Source: an uncultured Candidatus Kuenenia sp. (GTDB lineage Bacteria > Planctomycetota > UBA11346). Taken from it: a DNA stretch of 64,000 nucleotides. The position numbers were made by a program, and so were the translations under genes. Of the stretch, positions 1,893-44,526 are shown in pieces. The stretch spans positions 67,288-131,287 of the forward strand of contig CAZZJC010000006.1 of NCBI GenBank assembly GCA_964654285.1, read 5' to 3'. Below the pieces are notes generated by a model, which was given only the letters and a program-made list of their open reading frames with translations, did not search any database and was not told where the DNA came from. Each line of letters begins with the position of its first letter. Within the stretch, counting starts at the first letter, position 1.

Positions 1893-1904
1893 GCCGCCCA
1901 CGTC

Positions 1905-7682: not shown

Positions 7683-7691
7683 CCCCCCCCC
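7683..7691. repeat. Homopolymeric C9 tract in the divergent promoter region
   Basis: cccccccccc run at 7683-7691 between the HAD-UbiA operon start (7564, minus) and the acyltransferase start (7869, plus). Confidence 0.9.
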
Positions 7692-7868
7692 TCGATTGTC
7701 AAGCATCCCAACCACGTTAGGTTCCTCAACCATGATCCGATCCATTAAAATCACCTGGTCTTGCCCCACCCACAGTTGCCCTGAATACGAACAACCATTT
7801 GGTCATAGCGTCACTTCTTTTAAAGTCGTAGCCCGAAATAATGGGTTCAGACTCGGAACGATTGTCAA

Positions 7869-9059: not shown

Positions 9060-9188
9060 TCCAACAACGCTTTTACCTAGTGCCACCTGCCTAGATGAAC
9101 CTATCCGACCAATTAGATCGCAGTCTAAACGAATGCGAGGGATTTTCAACTCGTGTCTTTCCTCTGGTGACGTTTCGCTTACGCGATT

Positions 9189-16583: not shown

Positions 16584-17347
16584 AGGAAATCCCGGACATC
16601 ACGTTCAAGACGGCGGAAGAGCAGCACTGCCACCAGACTCAGGAGGCATCCGACGAGGAGCATCCCCATCAGGACATGCCAATCAGGGAATTGGTGCAGG
16701 ATGAAGATCCGGTGGTAGCAGTCGATGCCGATCGCGGTCGGGTTGGCCTCGACCACTGGTCGTACCGCCGCCGGCACGATGTCCTTGAGGTAGACGATCG
16801 GAGTGAGCCAGAACCAGAGCTGGAAGACGATGTTGGCAACTTCCTTGAGGTCGGGCAGGAAGACCGTGAAGGTGGCAAGGAGCAGGCCGATGCCGTAGGC
16901 GATGAGTTGCTGCGCGATGAACACCGGGATCAGGGCCACCAGCGGCCAACCAGGAAATTCCCCGTTGGCGAAAGTCAACACCAGGAGGATGCCGGTAGTC
17001 ACCAGGTAGGTGAAGGTCTCGGCCAGGATGATGTAAATTGGCAACAGAGGCAGACTGGTCTGCATCTGCTGGATCATCGGCTTTTTGTCGCTGAAGACGG
17101 TGGCGCATCGCAAGCACGTCATGCTGAAGGCGGTCCAGGGCAGCAGTCCGCTCATCAGGTAGATGCCATAACCCCAGGCGGAACCGTTGCCCGGCAGGCG
17201 GGCGGACATGATCTGGGAAAAGATCACCGTGAAGATGAAGACCATCACCAACGGCTGGATCAGGGCCCAGGTGCCGCCCAGGGCGGAGCCGCTGAACCGG
17301 TCGGTGAGGTCCCGTCGGGCGAGATGGAGGAGCAGGGCCGGCGACAT
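16580..17347 (-). CDS. wzm: ABC-2 type polysaccharide export permease (Wzm)
   Basis: MSPALLLHLARRDLTDRFSGSALGGTWALIQPL... has six TM helices in an ABC-2 permease architecture. Its stop overlaps the wzt start (ATGA). The listed 302-aa ORF has an N-terminal extension, so the start is placed at M48. Confidence 0.85.
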   Translation of the reverse strand: MSPALLLHLARRDLTDRFSGSALGGTWALIQPLVMVFIFTVIFSQIMSARLPGNGSAWGYGIYLMSGLLPWTAFSMTCLRCATVFSDKKPMIQQMQTSLPLLPIYIILAETFTYLVTTGILLVLTFANGEFPGWPLVALIPVFIAQQLIAYGIGLLLATFTVFLPDLKEVANIVFQLWFWLTPIVYLKDIVPAAVRPVVEANPTAIGIDCYHRIFILHQFPDWHVLMGMLLVGCLLSLVAVLLFRRLERDVRDFL

Positions 17348-17418
17348 GGAAGGCGCGGCACCATATAGGAGCCTTGCGCAGTATCCAGGGGGCTTGAGGT
17401 GGCGGCAACGATCCAAGG

Positions 17419-18531
17419 TCATCCCGCAGCACTGCGGGTCCGGGCGAGTTCGAGCATGGCCCACATGACCTGGGCAGAACAGTGCCAACCGCCCGGTTGA
17501 GCAGGCTGTGGTCGATGAATCCCGCCCTGTGCCAGCGCAGCCAAGGCATCAGCGAATCCCGACACCGTCAGGGACACCGGGCGCAGTGCGTCGCTGGCCG
17601 CCTCGCGCAATTCCGGCAAATCTCCCGCAATCACCGGGGTGCCGCAGCGGGCTGCTTCCAGGGCGGGCATGCCGAAACCCTCATACCGGGTAGGAAACAG
17701 CAGGGCTTCTGCCCCGGTCATCAACGCGGGGAGATCAGTCCGCGGAACATAGCCGAGATGGTGGATGGGTGCACCCGATACGCGGGCAGAGCGTGCCAAA
17801 GGATCCGCGCCCCAACCGCTACGCCCGGCGACCGCCAATTTGAGCCTGCCCAGGCGTCCAGCGGTGTGGACCTGTTCCGCAGCGGCAAGAAGCAGTCCAT
17901 AGTTTTTGCGGGGTTCCCTGGTACCGACTGCGAGGGCATAGGGTTTCTCCAAACCGTGCCGACGCAGGACCGCGCTCACCTCTGCCACCGGCCTGGGTGA
18001 GAAACCCGGGTCGGCATCCGGTCGGGCGATACCATCAACAGTATGACCATAGCGGTCCTGGATGCGCTTGGCTGTGCCCGCCGAGATGGCAACTGCGGCA
18101 TCTGCGCGCCGCAAATCACTGGCAAAGAACATCTTGGCGACGATCCGCCCGCCCAGGGTCATGGAATCAGGCGCTTCGAGGTGGACCACATCGTAGAGTG
18201 TGAGCAGTCCGGGGATCCCCTTGGGGCAACGCGGCATGGCCATGCTGCACCCCCAGAAGGCATCGATGCGGTCGCCGCGCAGCATGGCCCCGACTCGTTC
18301 GCGCATCCATACGGTCTGCGGCACGCCTCTGGGCCACCAGGGATCGGTACGCCAGAAGTGTTCGATCCCAGGCAGGTCGATATCCTGCCGACACGGCAGG
18401 TAGATGACCACTTCCAGGGGGCGGATCGCTGCCATCGCCCGCAGCAGGGCCGCGACATAGAGGCCAATTCCTGCGACGGGAGCGCGCACAGCACGGCCAT
18501 CGATGGCGAGGCGGAAGGGAGGGTCTGACAT
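17419..18531 (-). CDS. GT4 family glycosyltransferase (group 1)
   Basis: MSDPPFRLAIDGRAVRAPVAGIGLYV...VGTREPRKNYGLLL...RYEGFGMPALEAARCGTPVIAGD carries the GT4 EX7E region. The start is placed at M99 of the listed ORF because the N-terminal 98 aa look non-proteinaceous. Confidence 0.8.
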   Translation of the reverse strand: MSDPPFRLAIDGRAVRAPVAGIGLYVAALLRAMAAIRPLEVVIYLPCRQDIDLPGIEHFWRTDPWWPRGVPQTVWMRERVGAMLRGDRIDAFWGCSMAMPRCPKGIPGLLTLYDVVHLEAPDSMTLGGRIVAKMFFASDLRRADAAVAISAGTAKRIQDRYGHTVDGIARPDADPGFSPRPVAEVSAVLRRHGLEKPYALAVGTREPRKNYGLLLAAAEQVHTAGRLGRLKLAVAGRSGWGADPLARSARVSGAPIHHLGYVPRTDLPALMTGAEALLFPTRYEGFGMPALEAARCGTPVIAGDLPELREAASDALRPVSLTVSGFADALAALAQGGIHRPQPAQPGGWHCSAQVMWAMLELARTRSAAG

Positions 18532-18603
18532 CGTCGCGGGAACCCGGCTGAGGGCGAGGCCTGCATAGGCTGCTATCGGAGCGGGGCAAGATGTCCGTCG
18601 CCG

Positions 18604-19296
18604 GTGCGATCTCCGGCATGGACAGGCCCAAGCAGTCGGGATCATGGCCAACCCATGACAGGACCCAGCCCCGTCGATGAACTCATGCAGCGGGTCGCCG
18701 CCAGGGCCGCCTGGTACCGCCGGGCGGACGCCCGGGATGGTCTGGCCCTGCCGGAACCATTGCCGGCGCTGAGCCGGCCGGAAGCGCCGCGCGCGGTTCC
18801 GCAGCATCCCCGGGTCGGCCTGCATGAATTGCTCTCGCTACGAGGGGGTGATGTCGTTTCATCAGCCTATGAACGCCTGCTCTGGCGCTGCGCGAGTCCC
18901 GAGGAACTGGCCTTCCGGCTCGAACTGTTCCGCAGCGGCCGCCAAGATGTCTTCACCCTGATCCATGATCTTCGCCACAGTCCCGAGGGCATCCGTTGCG
19001 GGGTGCGGATCACCGGCAAAGGTTGGCGAAGGATCATCTTCGCCGTGCTCCGTCTTCCGATGGGCCGGCGCATGTGGCTTGGTTTGCGGGCCTTATTCGC
19101 CCTGCCCCGCTTGCGGGTCGACATCGGAGCCGAGTTGAGGCGTCAGGATCAACGTGTCGAGCGAATCGAGCACGCCCTGGGCGGCTTCGGACCGAAAGCT
19201 GCCCATGATCCGGAAACCGCTCAGGCTCTGCGGTGCCGGCTCGCGGCCCTTGAGCGTAGGGTCGCGGTCCTTGAACAGACGGTAGACCGTCCGTGA
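18604..19296 (+). CDS. DUF4214-like domain protein with a short C-terminal coiled coil (truncated WbdD-like paralog without a catalytic domain)
   Basis: VVSSAYERLLWRCASPEELAFRLELFRSGRQDVFTLIHDLRHSPEG has a DUF4214-like pattern. The C-terminus LRRQDQRVERIEHAL...LRCRLAALERRVAVLEQTV is a predicted coiled coil. An alternative start is at 18655. The stop overlaps the start of the following GT (ATGA). Confidence 0.5.
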   Translation: MRSPAWTGPSSRDHGQPMTGPSPVDELMQRVAARAAWYRRADARDGLALPEPLPALSRPEAPRAVPQHPRVGLHELLSLRGGDVVSSAYERLLWRCASPEELAFRLELFRSGRQDVFTLIHDLRHSPEGIRCGVRITGKGWRRIIFAVLRLPMGRRMWLGLRALFALPRLRVDIGAELRRQDQRVERIEHALGGFGPKAAHDPETAQALRCRLAALERRVAVLEQTVDRP

Positions 19297-21608
19297 TGAA
19301 TAAACGCATCGGCATCGTCGTCCCCTGGTATGGTGAAGCCCTGCGTGGCGGGGCAGAGACCGTGGCGCGGCAAGTGGCGCTCCGACTTGCCGCACGTGGT
19401 CATACGGTCGAAGTCCTCACCACGTGCTGCCGGTCCTTCCTGGACGACTGGGCGGTGAACCACCTGCCAGAGGGTTCGTCCGCCGATGGTCCGATACGGG
19501 TTAGCCGCTTCCCCGTCGATCCGCGCGATGCGCATGCTTTCAACTCGGCCAATGGATTTCTGCTTGGGCTGCCACCGCATCATTTCTCGCCTGGATTGGC
19601 CATTCCAGATCCGGGGTTCGTACCGCACAACCTCCACAGCGCCGCGCTCGTCCGCCATGTGGTTGACCATGCCGCAGAATACCACCGCGTTCTTTTTACG
19701 CCCTATCTGTACGGACCGATCCTGCGTGGTGCCCCGGCGGTCGCCGAACGGGCGGTTCTGCAACCCTGCCTGCATGACGAATCCTACGCCTACCTGGAAC
19801 CCATCCACGCCATGTTCCAGACAGTGCGTCGGTGCGCCTTCCTGTCCCATGGCGAGGCGGACCTTGCCGAGCGGATCTACGGTCCTGCGGTGATCGATGG
19901 TTCCATCGTGGTCGGATCGGGGATCGAAAGCGAAGAGTTAACCACGTCGGTCGCCGCCGGGGCTGATTCCCCGCTCATCCCCGAAGGGCCGTTCCTGCTC
20001 TACCTTGGTCGGCGCGATGCCACCAAGGGGGCCGACCTGCTGATCGACGGTTGGCGCCGCTACCAGGCTGCCCATCCAGGCAATCCGCTGGCATTGGTCC
20101 TGGCCGGACCAGGCCCGAAATCCTACACCGACCATGCGCTGCGGGTGACAGATCTCGGCCTGGTCAATGCCGCAACCAAGGCGGCTTTGCTGCGGGGTTG
20201 CCTTGCCCTGGTCCACCCCAGCCGCAATGAAAGCTACTCGCGCAGTCTGATGGAAGCCTGGCATTGCGGCCGCCCGGCGGTGGTTCATGCGCATTGCCCC
20301 GCCACCGCCGGGGCCATGGCGCGGGCGGGGGCAGGATGGCTTGCTAGTGAAGATCCGGATGCGTGGGCCCAGGCCATCGAGTGCGTCGCGGTATCGACGC
20401 AGGCCGAACGAGATGCGTTTGGTTCCCGTGGCGTCGCCTATGCGGCCGAGCACGCAGACTGGGAACGCTGTATCGACCGCTACGAGCAGCTCCTTGATCT
20501 TGCACCTACAACGGTGGCGACCATCCCGTTGCGAGCACGCCTGGGTCGGATCGATCAGGTCCTGACCGGATTCGACCTCGGAGATGCTATCTCGGAGGAG
20601 GCGCTCACGATCCAGCGTTGGTTGCGATCCCATGGGTGGCTCTCCGACATCGTTGCCCAGTATATCCAGGGACCGTTGCGCAGCGCCTGTGTGCCATGGC
20701 GAACTGGTCTGGTGAACCCTTCAGCCGGTATCATCTACCATCATTCGATCGGATCTGAGATCGCGACCGACGCAATTGCCCACCCCGGGCCCAAAGCCTT
20801 GATCTACCACAATATCACCCCGCCAAAATTTTTCACGGCGTATAAACCGGAACTCGCCAAGATGCTTCAGGATGGGCTCGACCATCTGCCCAGCGCTTGC
20901 GCCAGTTTCCCGCACCTCTGGGCGGATTCGGCCTTCAATGCCCGGGAATTGGCAGTTGCTGCGGGTCGACCCGTGGAGGTGCTGCCCCTGTCGGTGCCGC
21001 CCGCCAAATGGGCGGTGACGCCCGACCAGGGACTTCTCGCCGCCTTGCGCCGGGATCAGGTGCGCAACGTGCTGTTCGTCGGCCGGGTGGCGCCCAACAA
21101 GTGCCAGCATGATCTGGTGCGGATGTTCTGGCATCTGCTGCGGATGGGGGTCAATGCCAGACTCTGCCTGGTCGGACAGGTCTTCCCTGGGGATCCCTAT
21201 GTGGAGGAGGTCCAATCGCTCGCCGCCAATCTCGGCATCGCGAGCCGCGTCTGGATGCCCAACAAGATCACGGTGAGCGAATTGACCGCGGTCTGGAAGG
21301 TGGCGGATGTCTTCGTCAGCCTGAGTGAGCACGAAGGCTTCGGTGTGCCCCTGGTCGAAGCCATGCTGTTCGGCGTTCCCGTCGTCGCGTTTTCATGCAC
21401 CGCGATTGCCGAAACGCTGGGCGGTGTCGGTGTTCTGATGCCCGACAAGGGCGACCTGGTTGAAACTGCAGCAACCGTCGAGACCATCCTGGAAGATGCC
21501 AATCTGAGTGCGGAAATCGTCGCGCGCCAACGCGTGCGACGGATGGATTTCCTGCCTGCGGCAATAGAAAAAAGATATGAAACCTTGATTGGGGGGGCGT
21601 TTCATTGA
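19293..21608 (+). CDS. Two-module GT4 glycosyltransferase, 771 aa (paralog of modules 1 and 2 of the 1160-aa GT)
   Basis: IGIVVPWYGEALRGGAETVARQVALRLAARGHTVEVLTTC (module 1) and ...NVLFVGRVAPNKCQHDLV...EHEGFGVPLVEAMLFGVPVVAFS (module 2). The sequence is colinear with aa 1-~770 of ORF 10052..13534. Confidence 0.85.
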   Translation: MMNKRIGIVVPWYGEALRGGAETVARQVALRLAARGHTVEVLTTCCRSFLDDWAVNHLPEGSSADGPIRVSRFPVDPRDAHAFNSANGFLLGLPPHHFSPGLAIPDPGFVPHNLHSAALVRHVVDHAAEYHRVLFTPYLYGPILRGAPAVAERAVLQPCLHDESYAYLEPIHAMFQTVRRCAFLSHGEADLAERIYGPAVIDGSIVVGSGIESEELTTSVAAGADSPLIPEGPFLLYLGRRDATKGADLLIDGWRRYQAAHPGNPLALVLAGPGPKSYTDHALRVTDLGLVNAATKAALLRGCLALVHPSRNESYSRSLMEAWHCGRPAVVHAHCPATAGAMARAGAGWLASEDPDAWAQAIECVAVSTQAERDAFGSRGVAYAAEHADWERCIDRYEQLLDLAPTTVATIPLRARLGRIDQVLTGFDLGDAISEEALTIQRWLRSHGWLSDIVAQYIQGPLRSACVPWRTGLVNPSAGIIYHHSIGSEIATDAIAHPGPKALIYHNITPPKFFTAYKPELAKMLQDGLDHLPSACASFPHLWADSAFNARELAVAAGRPVEVLPLSVPPAKWAVTPDQGLLAALRRDQVRNVLFVGRVAPNKCQHDLVRMFWHLLRMGVNARLCLVGQVFPGDPYVEEVQSLAANLGIASRVWMPNKITVSELTAVWKVADVFVSLSEHEGFGVPLVEAMLFGVPVVAFSCTAIAETLGGVGVLMPDKGDLVETAATVETILEDANLSAEIVARQRVRRMDFLPAAIEKRYETLIGGAFH

Positions 21609-22777
21609 TTAAGCCGCGCATCGCGATGGTCGTCCAGCGGTATGGCCTCGAGGTCGCCGGCGGGGCCGAGTCTGTCGCGCGCGGGATCGCCCAGAAGATG
21701 GCTTCGGGTCCTTGGGAGGTTGAAGTCCTGACTACCTGCGCGATTCATTACGGCACCTGGAGGAACCATTATCCTTCAGGAAAGCTGCAAGACGGACCAG
21801 TCCTCGTGCGCCGTTTCCCGGTCGCAAGGGAGCGTCAAGAGTCTGCCTTCACCGCGTGGTGCAACCGGATCGGACACCAACCCGAACACGTCAGCCCTGC
21901 CGAAGCGGAAGCATGGATGCAGGCCCAGGGCCCTGATTGTCCGCAACTCACCGACTGGGTCGCCGAGAACGGCCATTGCTATGCTGGCGTGATGGCGTTC
22001 ACCTATCTCTATGCGACCACGGTGAACGCCTTGCGAGCCGCGCCAAAGGGAAGACGGATCCTGGTCCCCTTTGCCCACGATGAGTGGACTTTGCGTCTGC
22101 CGATCTGGCTTGAGTGGTTCGCGAACGTCGATCGCCTCGTGTACAGCACCGAAGAAGAGGAGAGCCTGCTGACATCCCGTTTTCCCGCATTGCGCGGGCG
22201 TGGGAGCGTGGTTGGTCAAGGTTTCACGCCACCGCCCCTTGGCAATGCCGACCGGTTCCGACAGACATTCGGTATCTACCGGGATTTCCTGCTCTACTGC
22301 GGCAGAATCGATCTGAACAAAGGGGTCGACATCCTGCTCGAACAACACGCGCGCTGGCGCAGGGTCGATGCAACCGCCCCCGATCTGGTGCTGATCGGCC
22401 AGGAAATGATCCAATTGCCCGCGCAACCAGGGGTGCATCGACTCGGGTTCGTCACCGACACCGTACGCGTTGATGCCCTGGCTGCGTGCCGGGCTTTGAT
22501 CAATCCCAGTGCCCTGGAGAGTTTAAGCCTCGTATTGCTCGAAGCCTGGTCCGCCGGTCGGCCGACGCTGTGCAATGCCGCCTGCGCGGTGATGGTCGGT
22601 CAGAGCCGGCGCAGTGGCGGGGGACTCTGGTATCGGGATGACGCCGAACTGCGCGCCGCGTGGGATATGATTAGGCATTCCCCACCGGATGCCGCCTCAG
22701 CCGGGCGTTGGGCCCGCGAGCGCTACGCGTGGCCGGCCATCATCGCCGGCTATGCGGCGTCTCTTCCCACGATGTGA
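21605..22777 (+). CDS. Single-module GT4 glycosyltransferase, 390 aa (paralog of module 3 of the 1160-aa GT)
   Basis: IAMVVQRYGLEVAGGAESVARGIAQKMASGPWEVEVLTTC...LLEAWSAGRPTLCNAACAVM. The start overlaps the stop of the upstream GT (ATGA). Confidence 0.85.
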   Translation: MIKPRIAMVVQRYGLEVAGGAESVARGIAQKMASGPWEVEVLTTCAIHYGTWRNHYPSGKLQDGPVLVRRFPVARERQESAFTAWCNRIGHQPEHVSPAEAEAWMQAQGPDCPQLTDWVAENGHCYAGVMAFTYLYATTVNALRAAPKGRRILVPFAHDEWTLRLPIWLEWFANVDRLVYSTEEEESLLTSRFPALRGRGSVVGQGFTPPPLGNADRFRQTFGIYRDFLLYCGRIDLNKGVDILLEQHARWRRVDATAPDLVLIGQEMIQLPAQPGVHRLGFVTDTVRVDALAACRALINPSALESLSLVLLEAWSAGRPTLCNAACAVMVGQSRRSGGGLWYRDDAELRAAWDMIRHSPPDAASAGRWARERYAWPAIIAGYAASLPTM

Positions 22778-23819
22778 TCACGGGGTCGCGGCCGCAGTAC
22801 CATCAGCCCAGACCCGCAGGCCCTGTCGAGCCAGATACAATGGGATGACCGTGAATCCGGCCTGGGTAAGGTCGCGCTGGAGGATCCGCTTGGCCTCGGA
22901 TCGATGCCTGCAGAGCAGGGTCACGGAACCGCCGTCACCACCAGCACCATTGACCTTGCATCCAAGCACGCCATGCGCCTGGGCGATGGTGATCACACGT
23001 TCGAAATCGGTGCCAACCAAGGCAGGATGCAAGGCGCGTTGGGCCTCGGTGTTCTCGTTCCACACTGTACCCAGGCCTGACCAATCTCCACGCATCAGTG
23101 CGTCTTTAGCCCGCAGGGCCAGACTGCGGAAACGTTCGAGGCGGACATCGGCATGAGCTTCAGGTCCGAGGTGCCGGATGACGTCCTGATGCACGGCAGA
23201 CGATTGGTGCGGTTTTCCTATGTAGACCAGCACCATGCGCCGTTCGAGTTCCCACCAGAGAGGGTTGGAAAGTTGGATCGGAGACACCGACGCATCGGGG
23301 AAACGGCTCATCTCGATCAGGTTGACTCCACCGTAGGCGGCACAGAGTTGATCCTGGATGCCGCTTTGAAGGGACAGGTCTTCCGTTTCGATGCGATGCG
23401 CCAACCGCGCGATCTCGTAGGGAGTGAGCGTTCCGGCAGAAAGCCGGTCGAGAGCGGCGATGATCGCCACCGAGACCGAGGCCGAGGTGCCGGTCGAGGC
23501 CCCTGGCGGGACCTCGCAAAAGATGCTGACATCGATGGAGGTGCGTTCCGGGATCTGCAGCCGGCGCAGGGCGCATTCCAGGAGCGGCAGCTTGTCGTAG
23601 GCCCGGTCGAGCTCTTCCATGGTGAAGTGCAGGCCGAAGTTCTCGGCATGGACGGCAACCCGGGGCTGGTCAGGACGTCGTTCCCGGGTGGTAATCTGCA
23701 CCTCGACGTAGGGATAGACCGCAATGTTGCACACCCGGCCGTGACCGGCGAACCAGGTATCGGTCCAGCCTCCTACATCGGCGACGCGGATCGGGGCGAC
23801 AGCGGTGATGGTGGTCATG
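22778..23819 (-). CDS. GHMP-family sugar kinase (HddA-like), copy 1
   Basis: MTTITAVAPIRVADVGGWTDTWF...CEVPPGASTGTSASVSVAIIAAL (GHMP motif II)...KVNGAGGDGGSVTLL (motif III). The second half of the gene has lower GC3. Confidence 0.8.
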
Positions 23820-23963
23820 CGGATCGGTTTCCTTGTTTGGGCGCGCAGCCTGCCGGCAATGGGCCGGTTCGTAAAGAGGCTGTCGGTCAAGGCGGAACTA
23901 CTAGGAAAGCGGCACCCAGGATGAGCCCCTGGCATCGATGTCTGCTGTGCGAAGATCACGGGC

Positions 23964-25361
23964 ATGAACCGTGCGCAGCAATCGGGGATTCTCTGGTGCG
24001 ATATCGGGGATCTCCTCGACTATTTCGCTCTTTATTCTCGTCCATCTGGAATTCAACGGGTAGTGGTAGAGGTTCTGCGGATGGCGCGACTGCGGTGCCT
24101 GCCCGAAGTGCGTTTGTGCCGGATCACCCCGGGTGGACGGCTGCTGCACCTGGACTGGAGTTGGCTTGATCAGGTGTCCAAACCCCCGACACCGCCGGTA
24201 GTAGCCGCCCCAGGCAAACCTCATCTCATTTCGGTGAAATTGGCCACCCACCTGCGCCAATGTGCGAAAAACGCTGTGCATTTGACATTCGCGTGTTTCC
24301 CGGGCGACAGCGGTGATCGATTCCGTCGATGGATCCGCCCCTTGCGCATTCCGCCAGCCCGACGGAAATGGCATGCGTCACTGGCGGCCGCAGGTGTTCC
24401 CTCGCTGCCGTCCGCTAGCGATCTGGTGGTGACCCTTGGTGCCCCCTGGATCCGACCTGGCTGCGAAAAGGATATGGAGCAGGTCCTGGCGCAAAGTGGG
24501 GCACGTTACGCGGTGCTCGTCTACGACTTGATTCCGCTCACCCATCCGCATCTGTTTCCGGATGAGCCGAACCCGTTCATGCCCTGGTTGGATTGGGCCC
24601 TCAAGCGGGCCTGTCTGGTGCAGACGATATCCCATTATTCTGCCCGGACGATTGCAGCCTACCGGGAAAATCGTGGCTTTCCCCTGGTCCCTACCGAGGT
24701 CATCCGCCTCGGCGATCCCCTGCAGGCATCGACGCGTGCCCCCAATCCGCTGCCCCCTCATATCAGGTTCATCCTCTGCGTTGGCACCATCGAAGCCCGC
24801 AAGAACCATCGCTTGCTGCTGGATACCTGGTTGATCCTGCGGGAGCGATTGGGGGAAAGATGCCCGCATCTGGTCTGGGCCGGACGCAAGGGCTGGTTGG
24901 TGGACGACCTGTTCACCCAACTCCGCGCCGCCCGCTGGCTCGAGGGACGCATCATCCATCTTCCCCAGGCCAGTGACGCCGAGTTGGAAACCCTGTACCG
25001 GGATTCGCTGTTCACTGTCTATCCCAGCCTGGCGGAAGGATGGGGCTTGCCGGTCGCTGAAAGTTTGTCCCGGGGCAAGGTGTGTATTGCCTCCAATAGC
25101 ACGTCGATCCCGGAAATCGCAGGCGACTTGCCTTACTTCATTGATCCCTTCGATCCACGTTCTTTGGCCGAACTAATCTGTCGTCTCCTCGACCAACCAG
25201 CCGAACTTGCTGCCCGGGAAGTCCGTATCCGGGAAACGTGGCGGGCACAACCCTGGTCGGTCTGTGCGGATCAGGTGTTGCGAGGTCTGGAAGAAACATT
25301 GGTCCTGAACGAATCCTGCCGATCACAAAGCACTGGTCCGAGCTGGTTGGGTCAGTCTTGA
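23964..25361 (+). CDS. GT4 family glycosyltransferase
   Basis: ...ILCVGTIEARKNHRLLLDTW...YPSLAEGWGLPVAESLSRGKVCIASNSTSIPEIAGD carries the GT4 EX7E motif region. Confidence 0.8.
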   Translation: MNRAQQSGILWCDIGDLLDYFALYSRPSGIQRVVVEVLRMARLRCLPEVRLCRITPGGRLLHLDWSWLDQVSKPPTPPVVAAPGKPHLISVKLATHLRQCAKNAVHLTFACFPGDSGDRFRRWIRPLRIPPARRKWHASLAAAGVPSLPSASDLVVTLGAPWIRPGCEKDMEQVLAQSGARYAVLVYDLIPLTHPHLFPDEPNPFMPWLDWALKRACLVQTISHYSARTIAAYRENRGFPLVPTEVIRLGDPLQASTRAPNPLPPHIRFILCVGTIEARKNHRLLLDTWLILRERLGERCPHLVWAGRKGWLVDDLFTQLRAARWLEGRIIHLPQASDAELETLYRDSLFTVYPSLAEGWGLPVAESLSRGKVCIASNSTSIPEIAGDLPYFIDPFDPRSLAELICRLLDQPAELAAREVRIRETWRAQPWSVCADQVLRGLEETLVLNESCRSQSTGPSWLGQS

Positions 25362-27127
25362 CCGTAAACGCGACGTATCGGTTGCCAATCCGACCAGTCC
25401 CAGATCCGATCCGGACGGGAATCAACCGAGACTGGGGTGCTATTCCATTCGTGCGGACCAAAGGACCTGACTGCCCGCCAATGCACCACCGCCCCAGCGG
25501 CCACTAACAAGCCGATGAACAGGAGAACGGGTTTTTGCCAGGCTGAATGGCATTTGAGGATCTTGATGATGAAAGGCACGCATAGCAAGGCGATGCTGAC
25601 GTATAGAGGTGCTTGTAAGCGGGGTCCGAAACTCCACCCACCCCACCAGTGTGGAAAGCAGGCAATGAGTATGGTTCCGACCACGACGTGCGCCGTAACT
25701 CCAATCCACAACCAGCGTCGATCCCGGTCGTAGACGATTCCTACTACCGCCCCCGGGATCGCGGCCAACATGACCGGATTGAAAATGAAAAAGCCGCGGT
25801 TGGGACTGAACCACTGGCCGAGGATGGCCTGCGGGAATACGGACGGATCAATGCGATTCCCACCATAATAGGGTGGGAATATCGTGCCGAATGCCGTCCA
25901 GGACCATGTGATAAAAAAAACGAGGACTAGCCCACATCCAAGCGCGAACCCAACCAACGGTGCGATGCGCCAACGATTGCCCAGAATCAGAAAGAGCAGC
26001 GCCACGGGTCCAATTAGCGCACCGTCTGGTCGGCACACGAAGGCAAATCCGACCAGCAGACCGGCCGCCAACGCGAGCAGCGGACCTCTGGCAGCGAGGG
26101 CCGCCCACCACGCAGCGGTCAGGCACGCTAGCATGGTGGAACTCGACCAGATAGAAAGCCCGTGTATACTGAGATGGGACGTAGCGAGTGTGAATACGGA
26201 TGCGCATATCGTTGCCGTCATCAAACCAGTTCCGACCTCCAATAGAAGGCCAAGGAATAGGGTTGCGGTCAAGGCGGTCATCACTCGGGAGGCCCATACG
26301 GCCACCGTTTGATCATCGAACCCCAAGATGTTCTGCACTGCCACGAAAGGGAGCAGCAGGCAGGAAGTTCCTGGTGGGAAGTAGTTGTATGGATTCCCGG
26401 TCGCGCCTAGGCGTATCCCGTAACTTTGCACAGTTACGATCTGCTCCTGCCACGCTGATAGGTCCAACGTCCTCTGGTAGAGGATTGCCTGAGCACCAGG
26501 AACATTCCACATATTATCACCAGTTCCAGCCAAGTTTTGGTGCCCGGTACCCAACCCAACCAGTACCAGGATGACAAGGAAGAAACCTGCCAACATGCGA
26601 AATCGCCCCGACGGGGTCAAAGCCACCAAGGCGATGGAAAGCACCCCCAAGCCGGCCAGCAGCCAACTAACTCCGTTAGCGGTCCCTGATCGGACCGCGA
26701 TGCGAAGTTGGTCAATGACTAACTCGGGTGTAGAAAGCTGGGAAAAAACACGCAATTCTACTTGCGCTGGAACCTTGGGGCCGGTCTGAAATGCGCGTAT
26801 TGCGTGCTTAGCCGATGGTGGGAATACCACCTCCTGAGCACCATCATCGTATCCCGGGGCCATGAGATCTATATGGATTTGTACAGGGGTGCGAGTTGAA
26901 AGCCACACGGTATAGGTAGACGAAGGTAGGGGCTTAATCACCCGCCACGTGAGCGACGGCAACCGGACTGTTCCATTGGCATCGACGGGAATCGACGACT
27001 GCCAAGCAGCTGGACTTTCCACCAACACGGTGTCGCCAATGCCCAGTCGGATGGAAATTCCCCAGGCGAGCAACAATATTCCTATGGCAACACCAAGCAA
27101 CCGGAAGAGAAACCAGCGGTTGATCAT
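25352..27127 (-). CDS. Large polytopic membrane protein (one N-terminal TM helix, ~170-aa periplasmic domain, then ≥10 TM helices); candidate GT-C-type lipid-linked-sugar glycosyltransferase
   Basis: MINRWFLFRLLGVAIGILLLAWG is a signal-anchor. A soluble β-rich segment follows, then a long hydrophobic region. The start overlaps the cysC stop (ATGA). GC is lower than in flanking DNA. No family was recognised from sequence alone. Confidence 0.55.
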   Translation of the reverse strand: MINRWFLFRLLGVAIGILLLAWGISIRLGIGDTVLVESPAAWQSSIPVDANGTVRLPSLTWRVIKPLPSSTYTVWLSTRTPVQIHIDLMAPGYDDGAQEVVFPPSAKHAIRAFQTGPKVPAQVELRVFSQLSTPELVIDQLRIAVRSGTANGVSWLLAGLGVLSIALVALTPSGRFRMLAGFFLVILVLVGLGTGHQNLAGTGDNMWNVPGAQAILYQRTLDLSAWQEQIVTVQSYGIRLGATGNPYNYFPPGTSCLLLPFVAVQNILGFDDQTVAVWASRVMTALTATLFLGLLLEVGTGLMTATICASVFTLATSHLSIHGLSIWSSSTMLACLTAAWWAALAARGPLLALAAGLLVGFAFVCRPDGALIGPVALLFLILGNRWRIAPLVGFALGCGLVLVFFITWSWTAFGTIFPPYYGGNRIDPSVFPQAILGQWFSPNRGFFIFNPVMLAAIPGAVVGIVYDRDRRWLWIGVTAHVVVGTILIACFPHWWGGWSFGPRLQAPLYVSIALLCVPFIIKILKCHSAWQKPVLLFIGLLVAAGAVVHWRAVRSFGPHEWNSTPVSVDSRPDRIWDWSDWQPIRRVYGQD

Positions 27128-27843
27128 TTAATGTTCCCGGGATAATCCATGAATCGGCCAGTGGACAGCGTTCGTGGCATGATATTAGACCTCTCCCTTG
27201 AAGGCCGGTTTGACAAAGTGATCAACTCAAGGTTGATTGATTGCACCAAGTGTTGAACTCTGCTTTCCGAAGTAGTGTCAATGATGGAAAGGTTCCGAGC
27301 CTTACATTCGGTTAATGTCTGGCACATCGTATCCAAACGCAATTCCGGCCGTTCCGGCTCTTCATACGGCGCATCGCAGCCGGTCAGGCCGGTCATCTGG
27401 CCGGCGCGGAAGCGGCGGTAGAGGCCCTTGGGATCGCGTTGTTCGCAGACGGCGAGGGGGGTGGCGACGTGGACTTCGATGAAGCGGCCAGCGGGGGCGG
27501 CAGCGCGGGCTTGGGCACGGCTGGCGGCGTAGGGGCTGATCAGGGCGACGAGGGCGATCAGGCCGGCGTCCGCGAACAGCGCGGCGACCTCGCCGGCGCG
27601 ACGGATGTTCTCCTGCCGATCGAAGGCGGACAGGCCGAGATCGCGGCAGAGGCCCTGGCGCAGCAGGTCGCCGTCGAGGACGTAGCAGGGCCGGCCCTGC
27701 GCCAGCAGGTCCGCCTCGACGGCGCGTGCGAGGGTGGTCTTGCCGCTGCCGCTCAGGCCGGTGAACCAGACGACCAGACCGGGTTGGCGTGGTGACGCGC
27801 GATCAGCGGATCCGCTGAGTGGCGGTTGGGGGAAATCAGGCAT
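27124..27843 (-). CDS. cysC: Adenylyl-sulfate (APS) kinase CysC with an atypical ~45-aa AT-rich C-terminal extension
   Basis: VVWFTGLSGSGKTTLA is the P-loop; YVLDGDLLRQGL and ...APYEEPERPELRLDT are canonical CysC blocks. The ORF continues about 45 codons beyond the usual C-terminus into low-GC DNA. Confidence 0.8.
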   Translation of the reverse strand: MPDFPQPPLSGSADRASPRQPGLVVWFTGLSGSGKTTLARAVEADLLAQGRPCYVLDGDLLRQGLCRDLGLSAFDRQENIRRAGEVAALFADAGLIALVALISPYAASRAQARAAAPAGRFIEVHVATPLAVCEQRDPKGLYRRFRAGQMTGLTGCDAPYEEPERPELRLDTMCQTLTECKARNLSIIDTTSESRVQHLVQSINLELITLSNRPSRERSNIMPRTLSTGRFMDYPGNIK

Positions 27844-27961
27844 GCGCTGAGATGATGTTGCGGTCTTGATGGTCGCAAGCTGTCAGGCGGTGAGATGAAC
27901 GGCGGATTCGGGATCGGTGGCCTGCTTGCGTTGCCTGCGCCTGTGGGAATGACAGCCGCCC

Positions 27962-28525
27962 ATGGCGACGCCCACGGTGACGACTTCCGGTGTGATGCTG
28001 GCTTGGCCCGACGGGTTTGCGGCGGCGTTGCCGCGCAGCGGGTGGGTGGTGGCGCATGCCAAGCCGCGCACCGAGAAGAAACTCGCCGAGGATCTGCTGC
28101 GCCTGGGGATCGCCGGGTGCCTGTTCCTGGAACGCCGCATCAAGCGTTATCCCGGCAAAGGGGTGCAGGAGAGCCAGGTGCCGCTGCTGGGCGGGTACCT
28201 GTTCGTGCACCTGGGCGAGGGCCGGGATCCCGAGCCGGTCTACCGCACCGAACGCGTGGTGCGGCTGATCCGGGTGCCGGATCCGGGCCGGCTGGCGGAT
28301 GATCTGGCGGCCCTGCAGCGGCTGATCGAGGGCGCGCAACGGCCGCTGGTGGTGCGGCCGGAACTGATGCCTGGCCAGGTCGTGACGATCGCCAGCGGCG
28401 TCTTTTCCGGCTGCCGGGGCGTGATCGTGCGGCGCGAAGGGGCGGCCGAGCTGGTGGTGAACATCGAGGCGCTCGGGCATTCGGTGGCGGTGCGGATGGG
28501 GGCCGACCTGGTCGGCACGGAATAG
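27962..28525 (+). CDS. NusG-family paralog (RfaH/UpxY/TaA-like transcription antiterminator)
   Basis: WVVAHAKPRTEKKLAEDLLRLGIAGCLFLERRIKRYPGKG...LLGGYLFVHL is an NGN domain. The C-terminal KOW domain is GQVVTIASGVFSGCRGVIVRREGAAELVVNIEALGHSVAVRM. An alternative start is at 27995. Confidence 0.75.
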   Translation: MATPTVTTSGVMLAWPDGFAAALPRSGWVVAHAKPRTEKKLAEDLLRLGIAGCLFLERRIKRYPGKGVQESQVPLLGGYLFVHLGEGRDPEPVYRTERVVRLIRVPDPGRLADDLAALQRLIEGAQRPLVVRPELMPGQVVTIASGVFSGCRGVIVRREGAAELVVNIEALGHSVAVRMGADLVGTE

Positions 28526-28579
28526 CTCGACGGCGTCCCCGTCCGCCGCCTGCGGCCGGGCCAGCCCGCGGCGTTGCGG

Positions 28580-29614
28580 TCAGCCCGCGGCGTTGCCGTC
28601 AGTCCAGACGCGCAGGCCCTGGCGGGCAAGGTAGAGCGGGATGACGGTGAAGCCGGCCTGGACGAGGTCGCGCAGCAGGGCGCGCTTGGCGTCGGAACGC
28701 GGGCCGCACAGCAGGGTGACGGAACCGCCGTCGCCGCCGGCGCCGTTGACCTTGCAGCCCAGGATGCTGTGGGCGGTGGCGATCGCGATGACCTTCTCGA
28801 AATCGGGGCCGACCAGGGCGGGATGCAGGGCGCGCTGGGCCTCGGTGTTCTCGTTCCAGACCCGGCCCAGTCCGGCCCAGTCGCCGCGCAGCAGGGTGTC
28901 CTTGGCGCGCAGGGCGAGGCTGCGGATACGTTCCAGGCGCGGATCCGCGTGCGCATCGGGGCCGAGGTGGCGGATGACCTCCTGGTGCACGGCCGATGAC
29001 TGGTGCGGCCGGCCGATATAGACCAGCGCCATGCGCCGTTCGAGTTCCCACCACAGGGCATTGGGCAGGTGGAGCGGCGACACCGACGCGTCCGGGAAGC
29101 GGGTCATCTCGATCAGGTTGACGCCGCCGTACGCGGCGCAGAGCTGGTCCTGGATGCCGCTCTGCAGGGAAAGATCCTCGGCCTCGATGCGGTGCGCCAG
29201 GCGGGCGATCTCGTAGGCGGTGAGGGTGCCCCCGGACAGGCGGTCGAGCGCGGCGATGATCGCGACCGATACCGAGGCCGAGGTGCCGGTGGACGCGCCC
29301 GGCGGCACCTCGCAGAAGAGGCTGACATCGATCGAGATGCGCTCCGGGACCTGGAGCCGGCGCAGGGCGCATTCCAGCAGCGGCAGCTTGTCGTAGGCGC
29401 GGTCGAGCTCCTCCATCGAGAAGCGCAGGCCGAAGTTCTCGGCGTGCACCGCGACCCGGGGCTGGTCGGGGCGGCGTTCGCGCGTGGTGATCTGGACTTC
29501 GACGTAGGGATAGACCGCGATGTTGCAGACCCGGCCATGACCGGCGAACCAGGTGTCGGTCCAGCCGCCGACGTCGGCGACGCGGATCGGGGCGACGGCG
29601 GTGATGGTGGTCAT
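28580..29614 (-). CDS. GHMP-family sugar kinase (HddA-like), copy 2 (about 89% aa identity to copy 1)
   Basis: MTTITAVAPIRVADVGGWTDTWF...CEVPPGASTGTSASVSVAIIAAL...KVNGAGGDGGSVTLL. GC is high throughout. It is embedded in the listed 487-aa ORF 28580..30043, whose N-terminal extension is spurious. Confidence 0.8.
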   Translation of the reverse strand: MTTITAVAPIRVADVGGWTDTWFAGHGRVCNIAVYPYVEVQITTRERRPDQPRVAVHAENFGLRFSMEELDRAYDKLPLLECALRRLQVPERISIDVSLFCEVPPGASTGTSASVSVAIIAALDRLSGGTLTAYEIARLAHRIEAEDLSLQSGIQDQLCAAYGGVNLIEMTRFPDASVSPLHLPNALWWELERRMALVYIGRPHQSSAVHQEVIRHLGPDAHADPRLERIRSLALRAKDTLLRGDWAGLGRVWNENTEAQRALHPALVGPDFEKVIAIATAHSILGCKVNGAGGDGGSVTLLCGPRSDAKRALLRDLVQAGFTVIPLYLARQGLRVWTDGNAAG

Positions 29615-29808
29615 GGGCGGTTTTCCTGGGGAAGGATCGAGCCTGCCGCCCGGCGGCGGTGAGGGAAGATGGCGTGCCAGGTCGCAGGCGCCGGGTACGC
29701 GCGATGGCGGCGATGCCGGAAACGCATCCGCCCCGGCCGCAACCGCGCCGGATCGCCCACCCGCTGCGTCGGGCGGTTGAGTCCCCCGGCGGGGGGCGAC
29801 ACTCGCCG

Positions 29809-30924
29809 ATGTCCATGTCCACGACCGCTGTCTCTCCATCGGCCGGATTGGCCACCGATCGCGCCACGCTCGCCGCCTGGCTGGCGTGCGAGGACGACGT
29901 CCGGCTGGAGGACCTCTGGGCGGCGGCCGATGCGGTGCGGCGCGAGCATGTCGGCGATGACGTCCACCTGCGCGGGCTGATCGAGATCTCGAACCACTGC
30001 GTGCGGCAGTGCGCGTACTGCGGCCTGGCGGGCAGTCGCGCACCGGAACCGGCCGGACCGCTGCCGCGTTATCGCATGACGCACGACGAGATCCTCGCCT
30101 GCGCGCACCAGGCGCGCGGGTACGGCTACGGCACGGTGGTGCTGCAAGGCGGCGAGGACTACGGCCTTACCGCCGACTGGGTCGCGGCGGTGGTGCGGGC
30201 GATCAAGGCCGAGACCGGGTTGTCGGTGACGCTCAGCCTGGGCGAGCGGCGCGAGGACGAATTGCAGGCCTGGCGCGCGGCCGGGGCGGATCGCTACCTG
30301 CTGCGCTTCGAGACCGCGAACCGGGACCTCTACCGCCGCATCCATCCGGATCTCGGCCGCGAGGTGTCCGACCGGCTGGCGCTGCTGCAGCGGTTGCGCG
30401 CGATCGGCTACGAGATCGGCACCGGCATCATGGCCGGCATCCCGGGGCAGACGTTCGCGGATCTGCTCGACGACCTGGAGACCTTCCGCCGGTTGGATCC
30501 CGACATGATCGGCATCGGGCCGTACCTGCCGCATCCGCAGACCCCGCTCGGCCGCGAGGCGATCGGCATCTTCGCCGACACGCCGGGGCAGGTGCCCTCC
30601 AGCGAACGGATGACCTGCATCCTGGTGGCGCTGACGCGGCTGGTCTGCCCCGAGGCGAACCTGCCCGCGACGACCGCGCTGGCGACGATCAACAAGCGCG
30701 ATGGGCGCGAGAACGGCCTGCGCCGGGGGGCGAACATCCTGATGCCGAACCTGACCCCGGTGCGCTATCGCGCCCTCTACGAGATCTATCCCGCCAAGGC
30801 CTGCGTCGACGAGACCGCGGAGCAGTGCCACGGCTGCCTGGACGGCCGCATCCGCGCGCTCGGCCGGGTGCCGGGGCGCGGGCCGGGCAGCCGGCGGCGG
30901 TCGCTGGCCGGGGGAGGCGCATGA
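29809..30924 (+). CDS. hydE: [FeFe]-hydrogenase maturase HydE (radical SAM, BioB-like)
   Basis: LRGLIEISNHCVRQCAYCGL is the CX3CX2C radical-SAM motif in a HydE-type context. VLQGGEDYGL and GANILMPNLTPVRYRALYEIYP are HydE-like C-terminal blocks. The start is placed at M51 of the listed ORF. The stop overlaps the hydG start (ATGA). Confidence 0.75.
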   Translation: MSMSTTAVSPSAGLATDRATLAAWLACEDDVRLEDLWAAADAVRREHVGDDVHLRGLIEISNHCVRQCAYCGLAGSRAPEPAGPLPRYRMTHDEILACAHQARGYGYGTVVLQGGEDYGLTADWVAAVVRAIKAETGLSVTLSLGERREDELQAWRAAGADRYLLRFETANRDLYRRIHPDLGREVSDRLALLQRLRAIGYEIGTGIMAGIPGQTFADLLDDLETFRRLDPDMIGIGPYLPHPQTPLGREAIGIFADTPGQVPSSERMTCILVALTRLVCPEANLPATTALATINKRDGRENGLRRGANILMPNLTPVRYRALYEIYPAKACVDETAEQCHGCLDGRIRALGRVPGRGPGSRRRSLAGGGA

Positions 30925-32366
30925 CCTCTGCCGCGATCGGCACCGACTTCATCGACGATGCGTATCTCGAAGGCCTGCTCGCTGAGACCCCGGCGGATCC
31001 CGGGCACGTGCGCGAGATCATCGCGAAAAGCCTGGCGAAGCAGGCGCTGACGGTCGAGGAGACCGCCGTGCTGCTGACCATCCGCGACCCCGCCCTCAAG
31101 GCCGAGATCCAGGAAGGGTCGCGCCGGCTGAAGCGCCAGGTCTACGGCAACCGCATCGTGCTCTTCGCGCCGCTCTACGTCGGCAATCTGTGCGTGAACG
31201 ATTGCACCTACTGCGGCTTCAAGCGCTCGAACCACGACGCGGTGCGCACCACGCTCGACCGCGACGCCCTGGTCAGCCAGGTGAAGGCCCTGGAGGACGC
31301 CGGGCACAAGCGCCTGATCCTGGTCTTCGGCGAGCATCCGCGCTACGACGCCGCATTCATCGCCGACAGCGTGCGCACGGTGTACGGGGTCACCAGCGGC
31401 GCGACCGGCGAGATCCGCCGGGTGAACGTCAACGCAGCGCCGTTCGACATCGACGGCTTCCGCACCGTGAAGGCGGCCGGCATCGGCACCTGGCAGGTCT
31501 TCCAGGAGACCTACCACCACGCGACCTACGCCGCGATGCATTCCGCCAGGCAGGACCGGCCGGCGCCCGGTGTGAATTCGGCGCAACGGCCCAAAAGCGA
31601 TTACCTCTGGCGCCTGTCCGCCTTCGACCGCGCGATGCAGGCGGGCATCGACGATGTCGGCCTGGGCGCGCTGTTCGGCCTGTACGACTGGCGCTTCGAG
31701 GTGCTCGGCCTCGTCCGCCATGCCCTGCACCTGCAGGAATGCTTCGGCGTCGGGCCGCACACCATCAGCTTCCCGCGCCTGCAACCGGCCTCGGGGGTCA
31801 CCCTCGACCCGCGCTGGGCGGTCTGCGACGACGACTTCCGCCACCTCGTCGCGGTACTGCGCCTCGCGGTGCCGTACACCGGGCTGATCCTGACCGCACG
31901 CGAACCGGTGGCGATCCGCAATGAACTGATGGAATTCGGGGTGAGCCAGATCGATGGCGGCACCCGCATCGGCCTCGGCGCCTACACCGCCGGCGACGAC
32001 GGGCAGCACCTCGAACGCGAGCAGTTCCGCATCGGCGACAGCCGCAGCCTGGACCAGGTCGTGCAGGAACTCATCGCCCGCCACGAACTGCCGAGCTTCT
32101 GCACCGCCTGCTACCGCCTCGGCCGCACCGGCGAGCATTTCATGGAGTTCGCCATCCCGGGCTTCATCAAGCGCTTCTGCACCCCGAACGCGCTCACCAC
32201 CTTGCAGGAATACCTCGTCGACTACGCCCCGCCGGACACTCGCGCCCAGGGCCAGGCCGTGATCGCGGCGGAACTGGCCCGCATGGAAGACGGCGACCTC
32301 AAGCGCGAACTGGTCGCGCGGCTTGAACGCATCCGCACCACGGCGGCGCGCGACCTGTATTTCTGA
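30921..32366 (+). CDS. hydG: [FeFe]-hydrogenase maturase HydG (radical SAM tyrosine lyase)
   Basis: YVGNLCVNDCTYCGFKRSN is a ThiH/HydG N-terminal radical-SAM motif. The C-terminus carries SFCTACYRLGRTGEHFMEFAIPGFIKRFC, a CX2CX22C motif that distinguishes HydG from ThiH. It is embedded in the listed 785-aa ORF, and the start is taken at MTSAAIGTDF. Confidence 0.8.
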   Translation: MTSAAIGTDFIDDAYLEGLLAETPADPGHVREIIAKSLAKQALTVEETAVLLTIRDPALKAEIQEGSRRLKRQVYGNRIVLFAPLYVGNLCVNDCTYCGFKRSNHDAVRTTLDRDALVSQVKALEDAGHKRLILVFGEHPRYDAAFIADSVRTVYGVTSGATGEIRRVNVNAAPFDIDGFRTVKAAGIGTWQVFQETYHHATYAAMHSARQDRPAPGVNSAQRPKSDYLWRLSAFDRAMQAGIDDVGLGALFGLYDWRFEVLGLVRHALHLQECFGVGPHTISFPRLQPASGVTLDPRWAVCDDDFRHLVAVLRLAVPYTGLILTAREPVAIRNELMEFGVSQIDGGTRIGLGAYTAGDDGQHLEREQFRIGDSRSLDQVVQELIARHELPSFCTACYRLGRTGEHFMEFAIPGFIKRFCTPNALTTLQEYLVDYAPPDTRAQGQAVIAAELARMEDGDLKRELVARLERIRTTAARDLYF

Positions 32367-33832: not shown

Positions 33833-33868
33833 GGACTCGCGCCAATACATCTGGCGCGTTCGGGTGCA

Positions 33869-33980
33869 GTAGCGCCGGCTTCAGCCGGCTCGGACGGCGG
33901 GCTTCAGCCCGCCAGCCAAGGCAGTAATAACGCTGGGGCGACTGAAGTCGCCCCTCCTTGCCGGCTGAAGCCGGCGCTAC
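33869..33980. repeat. Perfect 21-bp inverted repeat (gtagcgccggcttcagccggc ... gccggctgaagccggcgctac) separated by 70 bp, with internal smaller hairpins
   Basis: Read directly from the sequence. Both arms and the spacer contain GC stems with TTCAG/CTGAA loops (gccggcTTCAgccggc, ggcgggcTTCAGcccgcc, ggcgacTGAAgtcgcc). Confidence 0.85.
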
Positions 33981-34050
33981 GGCAAACCTGTTGAAAGCGT
34001 CAGTTATCAATGCGCGAGCCTTTAGTCGAACTCTGACGCAGTCGCTTGCG

Positions 34051-44355: not shown

Positions 44356-44522
44356 CAGCGGGGTTCCACCCTGCCTGTTTTTTCAGCGGGGTTCCACCCC
44401 GCCACGCCCCGCCAGGGCTCTGCCCTGGACCCGGATTGCCCGGAAGGGCTGTTAGCCGCGGGGTTCCACCCCGCCACGCCCCGCCAGGGCTCTGCCCTGG
44501 ACCCGGATTGCCCGGAAGGGCT
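44351..44522. repeat. Tandem direct repeat, 72-bp unit, two full copies plus one diverged partial copy, internally palindromic
   Basis: The unit is gttagccgcggggttccaccccgccacgccccgccagggctctgccctggacccggattgcccggaagggct. Identical copies lie at 44386-44450 and 44458-44522, with a partial copy at 44351-44385. It contains the hairpin cagggcTCTgccctg. Confidence 0.9.
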
Positions 44523-44526
44523 CACC

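Follow-up and report, generated by a model that had tools for sequence, protein, structure and literature searches.

We analysed a 64,000-nt stretch of contig CAZZJC010000006.1 from an uncultured Candidatus Kuenenia sp. (hereafter the window) and found that it carries two diverged genes for GHMP-family sugar kinases, K1 (copy 1; 22778-23818, minus strand) and K2 (copy 2; 28580-29614, minus strand), on either side of the boundary of the variable part of a surface-polysaccharide locus. We consider it fairly probable that K1 is a foreign (xenologous) allele that arrived with a variable glycan cassette, that K2 is the resident copy, that K1 is itself a mosaic, and that both genes are functional. 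On this account, K2 would be a conserved, resident 'anchor' at the edge of a locus of the ABC-transporter (Wzm/Wzt) type, and K1, a diverged allele encoding the same enzyme, would have come in with a lower-GC glycan cassette, probably from a related lower-GC lineage. The first ~370 nt of K1 would reflect an old recombination or gene conversion, before or around the split between this organism and a related one described below, and both copies, under strong purifying selection, would probably catalyse the same reaction.

The initial annotation of this DNA, made from the sequence alone, had described a duplicated pair of minus-strand GHMP kinase genes with ~89% protein identity, identical first 62 amino acids (aa) and mosaic GC content. 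These features were borne out, with one coordinate corrected: K1 ends at 23818, not at 23819. The two proteins (346 aa for K1, 344 aa for K2) share the N-terminal start MTTITAVAPIRV and are 89% identical, with 38 differing residues in the family alignment; residues 1-63 are the same in both, yet this stretch contains ~20 synonymous differences. At the nucleotide level the genes are 82% identical (185 differences), and their longest perfect match, counted from the alignment, is ~25 nt. BLASTN aligned only 22800-23819 with 28596-29615, that is, the coding sequence plus a short upstream AGGAAA(A)CCG resembling a ribosome-binding site, and not the flanks. As the initial annotation had also stated, each copy lies between plus-strand genes: K1 between two GT4 glycosyltransferase genes (21605-22777 and 23964-25361), and K2 between a NusG-like gene (27962-28525) and a HydE gene (29659-30924).

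The two copies also differ in composition, and each matches its surroundings. K2 is GC-rich throughout, with 70.8% GC and a third-position GC content (GC3) of 0.92, ranging from 0.83 to 1.0 in each 90-nt segment, and most core genes have GC3 values of 0.8-0.96. K1 has 62.7% GC and a GC3 of 0.72, against 0.62-0.72 for the adjoining island genes, and its GC3 falls from 0.82 in codons 1-124 to 0.67 in the remainder. The two low-GC strings singled out in the initial annotation each occur once, on the minus strand, at 23060-23089 and 22823-22843. Among the 142 third-position differences between the genes, 80 have A/T in K1 and G/C in K2, and only 10 show the reverse.

Both copies are real. An assembly artefact, the possibility that the initial annotation had raised against itself, gains some plausibility from the source, which is evidently a metagenome or short-read assembly. 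We found, however, that in the independently produced Logan assembly of SRR6262237, from the same sample, one 33-kb contig matches the window at 100% identity over 19.6 kb and has both copies on it. This second assembly probably derives from the same reads, but copies with only 82% identity would not collapse or duplicate during assembly, and the 185 nucleotide differences, the unrelated flanks on both sides, the different composition and the intact reading frames all speak against an artefact. We therefore rejected this explanation, which is hardly credible. None of 87 other loci of the K1/K2 family that we examined has a second kinase copy within ~10 kb.

To distinguish resident from variable sequence, we compared the window with a related organism recovered from two samples, L008 (a 146-kb ENA contig) and L009. 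The gene order YceI-HydG-HydE-kinase-NusG-like is common to the window and both of these. The relative's kinase, P0121, occupies the same syntenic position as K2 and is 94% identical to it in protein and 92.8% in nucleotide sequence; the adjacent gene (27962-28525, plus strand, convergent with K2), an UpxY/RfaH-like NusG paralog, is 89.5% identical at the nucleotide level. Nucleotide homology between the window and L008 forms a syntenic core block (76-93% identity) that runs from 41918 down to 27329 and stops inside cysC, an adenosine 5'-phosphosulfate kinase gene (27124-27843, minus strand; 239 aa) whose last ~70 codons are unrelated to those of the relative's 199-aa counterpart. This break within cysC marks a recombination junction and the right edge of the variable region. 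Because homology ends at 27329, K2 lies in the conserved flank and K1 in the variable region. Beyond the NusG-like gene, the relative instead carries small ORFs, an AAA_16 protein, cysC, a 991-aa Fkp-like protein and a GT2, and no second kinase of this type occurs within the 21 kb read. The Fkp-like fucokinase/pyrophosphorylase (L008 17066-20041) directly follows cysC; the relative's cassette thus has a different GHMP anomeric kinase.

The divergence of the two genes indicates that the pair is old. Synonymous divergence (dS) between K1 and K2 is 0.88, compared with 0.21 between K2 and its L008 ortholog, and the ratio of nonsynonymous divergence (dN) to dS for K1 and K2 is 0.07. K1 is 82% identical in nucleotide sequence to K2 and equally to the L008 ortholog. 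With dS at ~0.9 and K1 equidistant from K2 and from the ortholog of K2, we rejected a recent duplication in place. In a neighbour-joining tree of the proteins, K1, K2 and P0121 form a clade with 100% bootstrap support, within which K2 and P0121 group together (94%) and K1 is sister to that pair. Among 5.8 billion proteins, the sequences with at least 89% identity to K2 are limited to K1 and the members of the K2 cluster, P0121 (94%) among them; the next match is at 77%, and the closest named relative is Planctomycetota bacterium LBMAG (74-75%). In the close relatives with readable contigs (P0004-P0007, 72-75% identical to K2), the kinase gene lies directly downstream of a GT4 gene in glycan loci, some of the Wzy and some of the ABC type. 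Since the kinase is a glycan-locus gene beside a GT4 in these relatives, an imported cassette would be expected to bring its own copy. The GT4s concerned are not orthologous to one another or to those of the window, showing only generic similarity (25-39%).

The divergence between K1 and K2 is not uniform along the gene. The 5' segment of K1 (23447-23818, minus strand; codons 1-124) is nearer the resident lineage, with dS of 0.52, dN of 0.019 and GC3 of 0.82, and the 3' segment (22778-23446, minus strand; codons 125-346) is more diverged, with dS of 1.18, dN of 0.092 and GC3 of 0.67. Third-position differences occur at 36 of 124 codons in the first segment vs 104 of 218 in the rest (maximum chi-squared permutation p = 0.017). 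As a control, the comparison of K2 with L008 gave no break (p = 0.57), with dS of 0.25 and 0.18 in the same segments. At sites variable among the three sequences, those at which K1 differs and those at which K2 or L008 differs number 20:20 in nt 1-300 and 120:41 beyond (Fisher p = 0.004). Over residues 1-124, K1 grouped with P0121, not with K2, in 87.5% of bootstraps, on the basis of few sites; H64 and T66 are common to K1 and P0121 and occur in no, or almost no, other family member, whereas I89 is the usual state in the family. Together, these data lend moderate support to the view that K1 and the resident lineage diverged more recently in the 5' third of the gene than in the remainder. The common ancestor of the 5' third is about as old as the split of the two sampled organisms, or older.

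Two other histories of K1 have to be weighed against a foreign, mosaic allele. We consider it somewhat unlikely that K1 has a single history and that the contrast between its segments reflects only stronger constraint at the N-terminus, including constraint at the codon level. Across the whole family, few residues are better conserved than the N-terminal 60, the nucleotide topology of the three sequences is equal in both segments so that depth alone differs, and the P-values are modest (0.004-0.08). Constraint would nonetheless have to halve synonymous distance itself (0.52 vs 1.18) while leaving the K2-L008 control flat, and it would have to explain the accompanying step in the GC3 of K1, the 87.5% bootstrap grouping with P0121 and the rare shared H64 and T66. 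The main alternative to a xenologous K1 is an old resident paralog, which we judge rather unlikely: an ancient duplication within the lineage would predate the split from L008, K1 would have drifted to lower GC in place through uneven amelioration or relaxed codon selection, and the relative would either have lost K1 or carry it outside the sequence read. Such a history fits the position of K1 as sister to K2 and P0121, with all other sampled sequences excluded (100% bootstrap), a divergence of K1 near the lower end of that of core genes between the two organisms, and the lack of a known donor. It fits less well with composition, as one genome has one mutational bias and a GC3 shift from ~0.9 to 0.67-0.82, matching the island, is better explained by residence elsewhere, and with the location of K1 beyond the synteny breakpoint, where the relative's gene content differs completely. 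The initial annotation had offered both possibilities, recombination with a foreign allele or an ancient duplication with uneven amelioration. The former is supported in outline by the location, composition and equidistance of K1 and by its less diverged 5' third; of the latter, the age of the pair stands (dS ~0.9), but the foreign allele fits better.

Several observations weigh against our preferred reading of K1 as a xenologous mosaic. No donor lineage has been sampled, and within the 5.8 billion proteins K2 and its ortholog are the nearest sequences to K1. The sequence read from the relative's locus extends ~10 kb beyond the kinase, and a K1-type copy could sit farther away. The 82% identity of K1 lies within the range of 76-93% for core orthologs, which would allow for a closely related donor or for K1 being an old resident paralog. 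In the wider family (50-58% identity), the kinase gene has no conserved neighbour. Finally, the mosaic statistics are moderate and come from three sequences, and part of the contrast between the 5' and 3' segments comes from rate heterogeneity, since conservation across the family is highest in the N-terminal part.

We found that K1 and K2 are GHMP kinases by both sequence and fold. Both exceed the Pfam cut-off of 22.3 bits for GHMP_kinases_N (53.7 bits for K1, 53.3 for K2); for GHMP_kinases_C, with a cut-off of 21, K1 scores 22.2 and K2 19.4 bits, and the fold model has the full C-terminal domain. All of the top 50 PDB matches of the AlphaFold model (predicted local distance difference test score 90) are GHMP kinases, with template-modelling (TM) scores up to 0.87, led by WcbL (0.87) and followed by the fucokinase part of Fkp, mevalonate kinases and galactokinases. 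The best solved relatives (WcbL, 3k85 and 4n3o) are 22-26% identical. The phosphate-binding motif II, PPGASTGTSAS (residues 103-113), is present in both proteins. In WcbL, residues R13, D22, Q162 and D163 are reported to contact the nucleotide and the sugar (PMC4691232); their counterparts, R11, D20, Q155 and D156, do not vary among 28 family members, K1 and K2 among them. Neither copy has lost any residue that is invariant in the family, and the columns in which K1 and K2 differ are less well conserved (mean top-residue frequency 0.53 vs 0.71). Neofunctionalisation of one copy was unsupported, given that these columns are variable and that the two copies agree with the family consensus at similar frequency (10 vs 13 of 38). 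Most likely, K1 and K2 would both use ATP to phosphorylate the anomeric hydroxyl of one and the same sugar or sugar phosphate, and the product would feed a nucleotide-sugar pathway for the glycan, plausibly that of a GDP-sugar.

The initial annotation had guessed at a substrate of the heptose-7-phosphate type. WcbL/HddA are indeed the nearest solved and characterised relatives (TM 0.87, 26% identity), with the catalytic residues kept, but the guess stands only as a resemblance. WcbL/HddA is the best match in both sequence (profile E = 2.5e-34) and fold (Foldseek TM 0.87, root-mean-square deviation 2.8), has the same length and domain order, and also occurs in surface-glycan loci. Identity to K1/K2 is, however, only 22-26%, and the motifs differ: K1/K2 have GGWTDTWF, PPGASTGTSA and GAGGDGGS where WcbL/HddA has GGGTD, PAGSGLGSSS and GAGGGGF, respectively. 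The best NCBIfam match, the HddA equivalog NF049969, scores 104.7 and 104.6 bits, far below its cut-off of 600. A scan for SIS, HAD-phosphatase-alone and NTP_transferase domains, as signs of pathway partners, gave no GmhA isomerase, GmhB/WcbN phosphatase, HddC/WcbM guanylyltransferase or any nucleotidyltransferase among the 53 major window ORFs scanned or beside close homologs. With a score of 105 vs 600 bits and no pathway partners in the Pfam scans, HddA membership was rejected. The fucokinase model PRK13412 likewise reaches 63 bits against a cut-off of 721, matching residues 95-336 only, and there is no PF07959 neighbour. The fucokinase domain of Fkp, an L-fucokinase/GDP-fucose pyrophosphorylase (PDB 9iip, 5yys), is nevertheless similar in being a GHMP anomeric kinase that feeds a GDP-sugar (Foldseek E = 7e-22), and it shares the N-terminal motif P-x-R-(x)4-GGW[ST]DT and G-x-QDQL; identity to the relative's Fkp-like protein is 27% over 299 aa. 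Unlike Fkp, K1 and K2 are free-standing proteins: neither is fused to a pyrophosphorylase or has one encoded next to it.

We infer that K1 and K2 are members of a large uncharacterised family and not bona fide HddA proteins. The family comprises 5,801 matches and at least 594 loci in GTDB representatives, at 50-58% identity and almost all from metagenome-assembled genomes (MAGs), and spans at least ten phyla, including Chloroflexota, Acidobacteriota, Verrucomicrobiota, Gemmatimonadota and Bacteroidota. A neighbour search (clusters within 6 kb on either side in 83 loci, with Pfam run on 67 upstream and 68 downstream neighbours) revealed no conserved neighbour across the broad family, no neighbour family occurring in more than three loci. 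Automatic pipelines annotate this family as 'heptose-7-phosphate kinase'. As K1 and K2 fall clearly short of the curated HddA model and lack the pathway partners nearby, thousands of database entries probably carry a wrong label. The main value of our analysis lies in this probable misannotation of a very widespread family, the duplication itself being a known pattern: polysaccharide loci swap as cassettes, which can place a compositionally foreign copy of a precursor gene beside a resident one. The window adds an example from a high-GC uncultured lineage about which little is known and which has a Planctomycetota MAG as its closest named relative. Knowledge of the substrate of so widespread and conserved a family would correct the annotation and clarify a step in the supply of precursors for envelope glycans in Planctomycetota, Chloroflexota, Acidobacteriota and others.

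The region around K1 is a glycan island. Window GC is ~66% at 1-7000 and 66-78% from 28 kb on, but 48-64% at ~7-28 kb, and the variable, lower-GC island extends over 7800-27328, its left edge being approximate and set by GC content only. From the left, it contains genes for an acyltransferase (7869-9059), a methyltransferase (9189-10055), an 1160-aa, three-module GT4 (10052-13534, minus strand), a 604-aa DUF4214-methyltransferase without a kinase domain (13531-15345), Wzt (15342-16583; ABC_tran plus Wzt_C, 109 bits), Wzm (16580-17488; ABC2_membrane) and a GT4 (17419-18825). Next come two plus-strand GT4 genes, 19293-21608 and 21605-22777, the second of which lies tail-to-tail with K1 at zero gap; on the other side of K1, the plus-strand GT4 gene 23964-25361 is divergent from it across a 145-nt spacer. 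A 591-aa protein with ~10 transmembrane segments (25352-27127, minus strand) follows, its start overlapping the stop codon of cysC by 4 nt. This protein has no Pfam match, only 28 relatives among the 5.8 billion proteins (one with PMT_2) and a weak match to LA_3751/LA_3752, and is probably a GT-C-like membrane glycosyltransferase. The 1160-aa GT4 is 42% identical over 778 aa to the product of 19293-21608 and, over its residues 767-1145 (the third module), 42% identical to that of 21605-22777; it is the fusion equivalent of the adjacent opposite-strand pair. As such, it implies that the island holds two paralogous WbdA-like polymerase sets, and the island may be a composite of two cassettes.

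With Wzm, Wzt bearing Wzt_C and five GT4 genes, the context of K1 is that of ABC-transporter-dependent O-polysaccharide synthesis. In the E. coli O8/O9a loci of this type, Wzm and Wzt with a carbohydrate-binding C-domain are accompanied by the multi-domain GT4 WbdA and the terminator WbdD. The island shares with these loci Wzm, a Wzt_C-bearing Wzt, methyltransferases and GT4s of two and three modules. It differs in that no WbdD-like kinase-methyltransferase is detectable in it, in that a GHMP kinase is not known to belong to the O8/O9a paradigm, and in its additional cysC, GT-C-like membrane protein and polyprenyl-phospho-pentose genes.

This setting bears on a further suggestion of the initial annotation, that the kinase could phosphorylate the chain terminus. 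Here, instead of acting on a precursor, K1 would modify or terminate the chain and, together with a methyltransferase of the locus, cap the polymer with a (methyl)phosphate read by Wzt_C, for which WbdD of E. coli O9a is the functional parallel. The Wzm, Wzt_C-bearing Wzt, 604-aa DUF4214-methyltransferase and WbdA-like multi-domain GT4s of the locus would suit such a role, as would the contig of one relative, in which Wzt_C, a 741-aa methyltransferase, a GT and the kinase follow one another on a single strand. WbdD, however, joins a protein-kinase-like fold to a methyltransferase, and K1 and K2 have the GHMP fold, whose characterised relatives all act on small soluble substrates. In addition, in three of five close-relative loci Wzy-type markers are present or Wzt is absent, K2 is retained irrespective of the cassette, and the broad family is found alone, far from glycan genes. 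We also rejected a link between the 604-aa methyltransferase (13531-15345) and WbdD-like terminators, as the protein had no WbdD similarity in PDB. Phosphorylation of the chain terminus by K1 is thus speculation, and very improbable. Also improbable is the idea that the family acts on a substrate new for the GHMP superfamily, such as a manno-configured hexose(-phosphate) or a pentose entering GDP-sugar salvage; if so, K1 and K2 could be isozymes serving the paralogous WbdA-like modules 10052-13534 and 19293-22777, or K1 could supply a cap phosphate read by Wzt_C.

Another known system offers a parallel for the arrangement of the pair. In E. coli, the paralogous phosphomannomutase genes manB and cpsG, located in the O-antigen cluster and the neighbouring colanic-acid cluster, have undergone recurrent recombination and horizontal gene transfer and have formed chimeras (PMC13626634). 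K1 and K2 likewise form a direct-orientation pair of precursor genes with one copy in a variable cluster and one in a conserved neighbouring locus, but they belong to another enzyme family and another organism and are far more diverged (82% nucleotide identity). Direct-repeat recombination between K1 and K2 would delete 23819-29614, and with it one GT4 gene, the GT-C-like gene, cysC and the NusG-like gene. As their perfect matches do not exceed ~25 nt, such deletions should be rare.

On the far side of K2, the hydE-like (29659-30924, plus strand, divergent from K2) and hydG-like (30921-32366, plus strand) radical SAM genes score 311 and 450 bits, above their NCBIfam equivalog cut-offs of 254.6 and 312, and are followed by MarR and then YceI genes. 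We rejected a functional link between K2 and these genes: the adjacency is confined to this lineage and occurs in none of 80 other loci. The scan of the 53 major window ORFs gave neither hydF nor an [FeFe]-hydrogenase domain. HydE homologs with 60-71% identity occur widely in MAGs.

Some minor features complete the picture. The C-terminal tails of the kinases differ among K1, K2 and the relative's ortholog, and a tandem duplication (28562-28602; 19-nt unit ACGGCAACGCCGCGGGCTG, 2.2 copies, 95% match) straddles the K2 stop codon. An Rfam search of the window returned no family, and in a promoter and terminator scan of 22000-30500, sites were no commoner than in shuffled sequence and none adjoined K1 or K2. 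To the left of the island, 3586-7729 (minus strand) holds a gene set like that of the decaprenyl-phospho-arabinose pathway: a UbiA prenyl/phosphoribosyl-transferase fused to a HAD domain (PRK08238, 544 bits), a DprE1-like FAD oxidase (413 bits, under the cut-off of 500), a DprE2-like short-chain dehydrogenase/reductase (161 bits, under 250) and an SMR/ArnE-like small membrane protein. These genes suggest that a periplasmic GT-C is supplied with a polyprenyl-phospho-pentose donor. Positions 1905-2297 (minus strand), near the left side of the glycan region, encode a truncated dTDP-4-dehydrorhamnose 3,5-epimerase covering only profile positions 63-166 of 168, possibly a gene remnant. Just downstream of the YceI gene lies an imperfect palindrome of ~120 nt (33865-33984; 74% self-complementary), and 44386-44772 contains two adjoining intergenic tandem-repeat arrays, one of 1.9 copies of a 72-nt unit (100% match) and one of 2.7 copies of a 91-nt unit (92% match).

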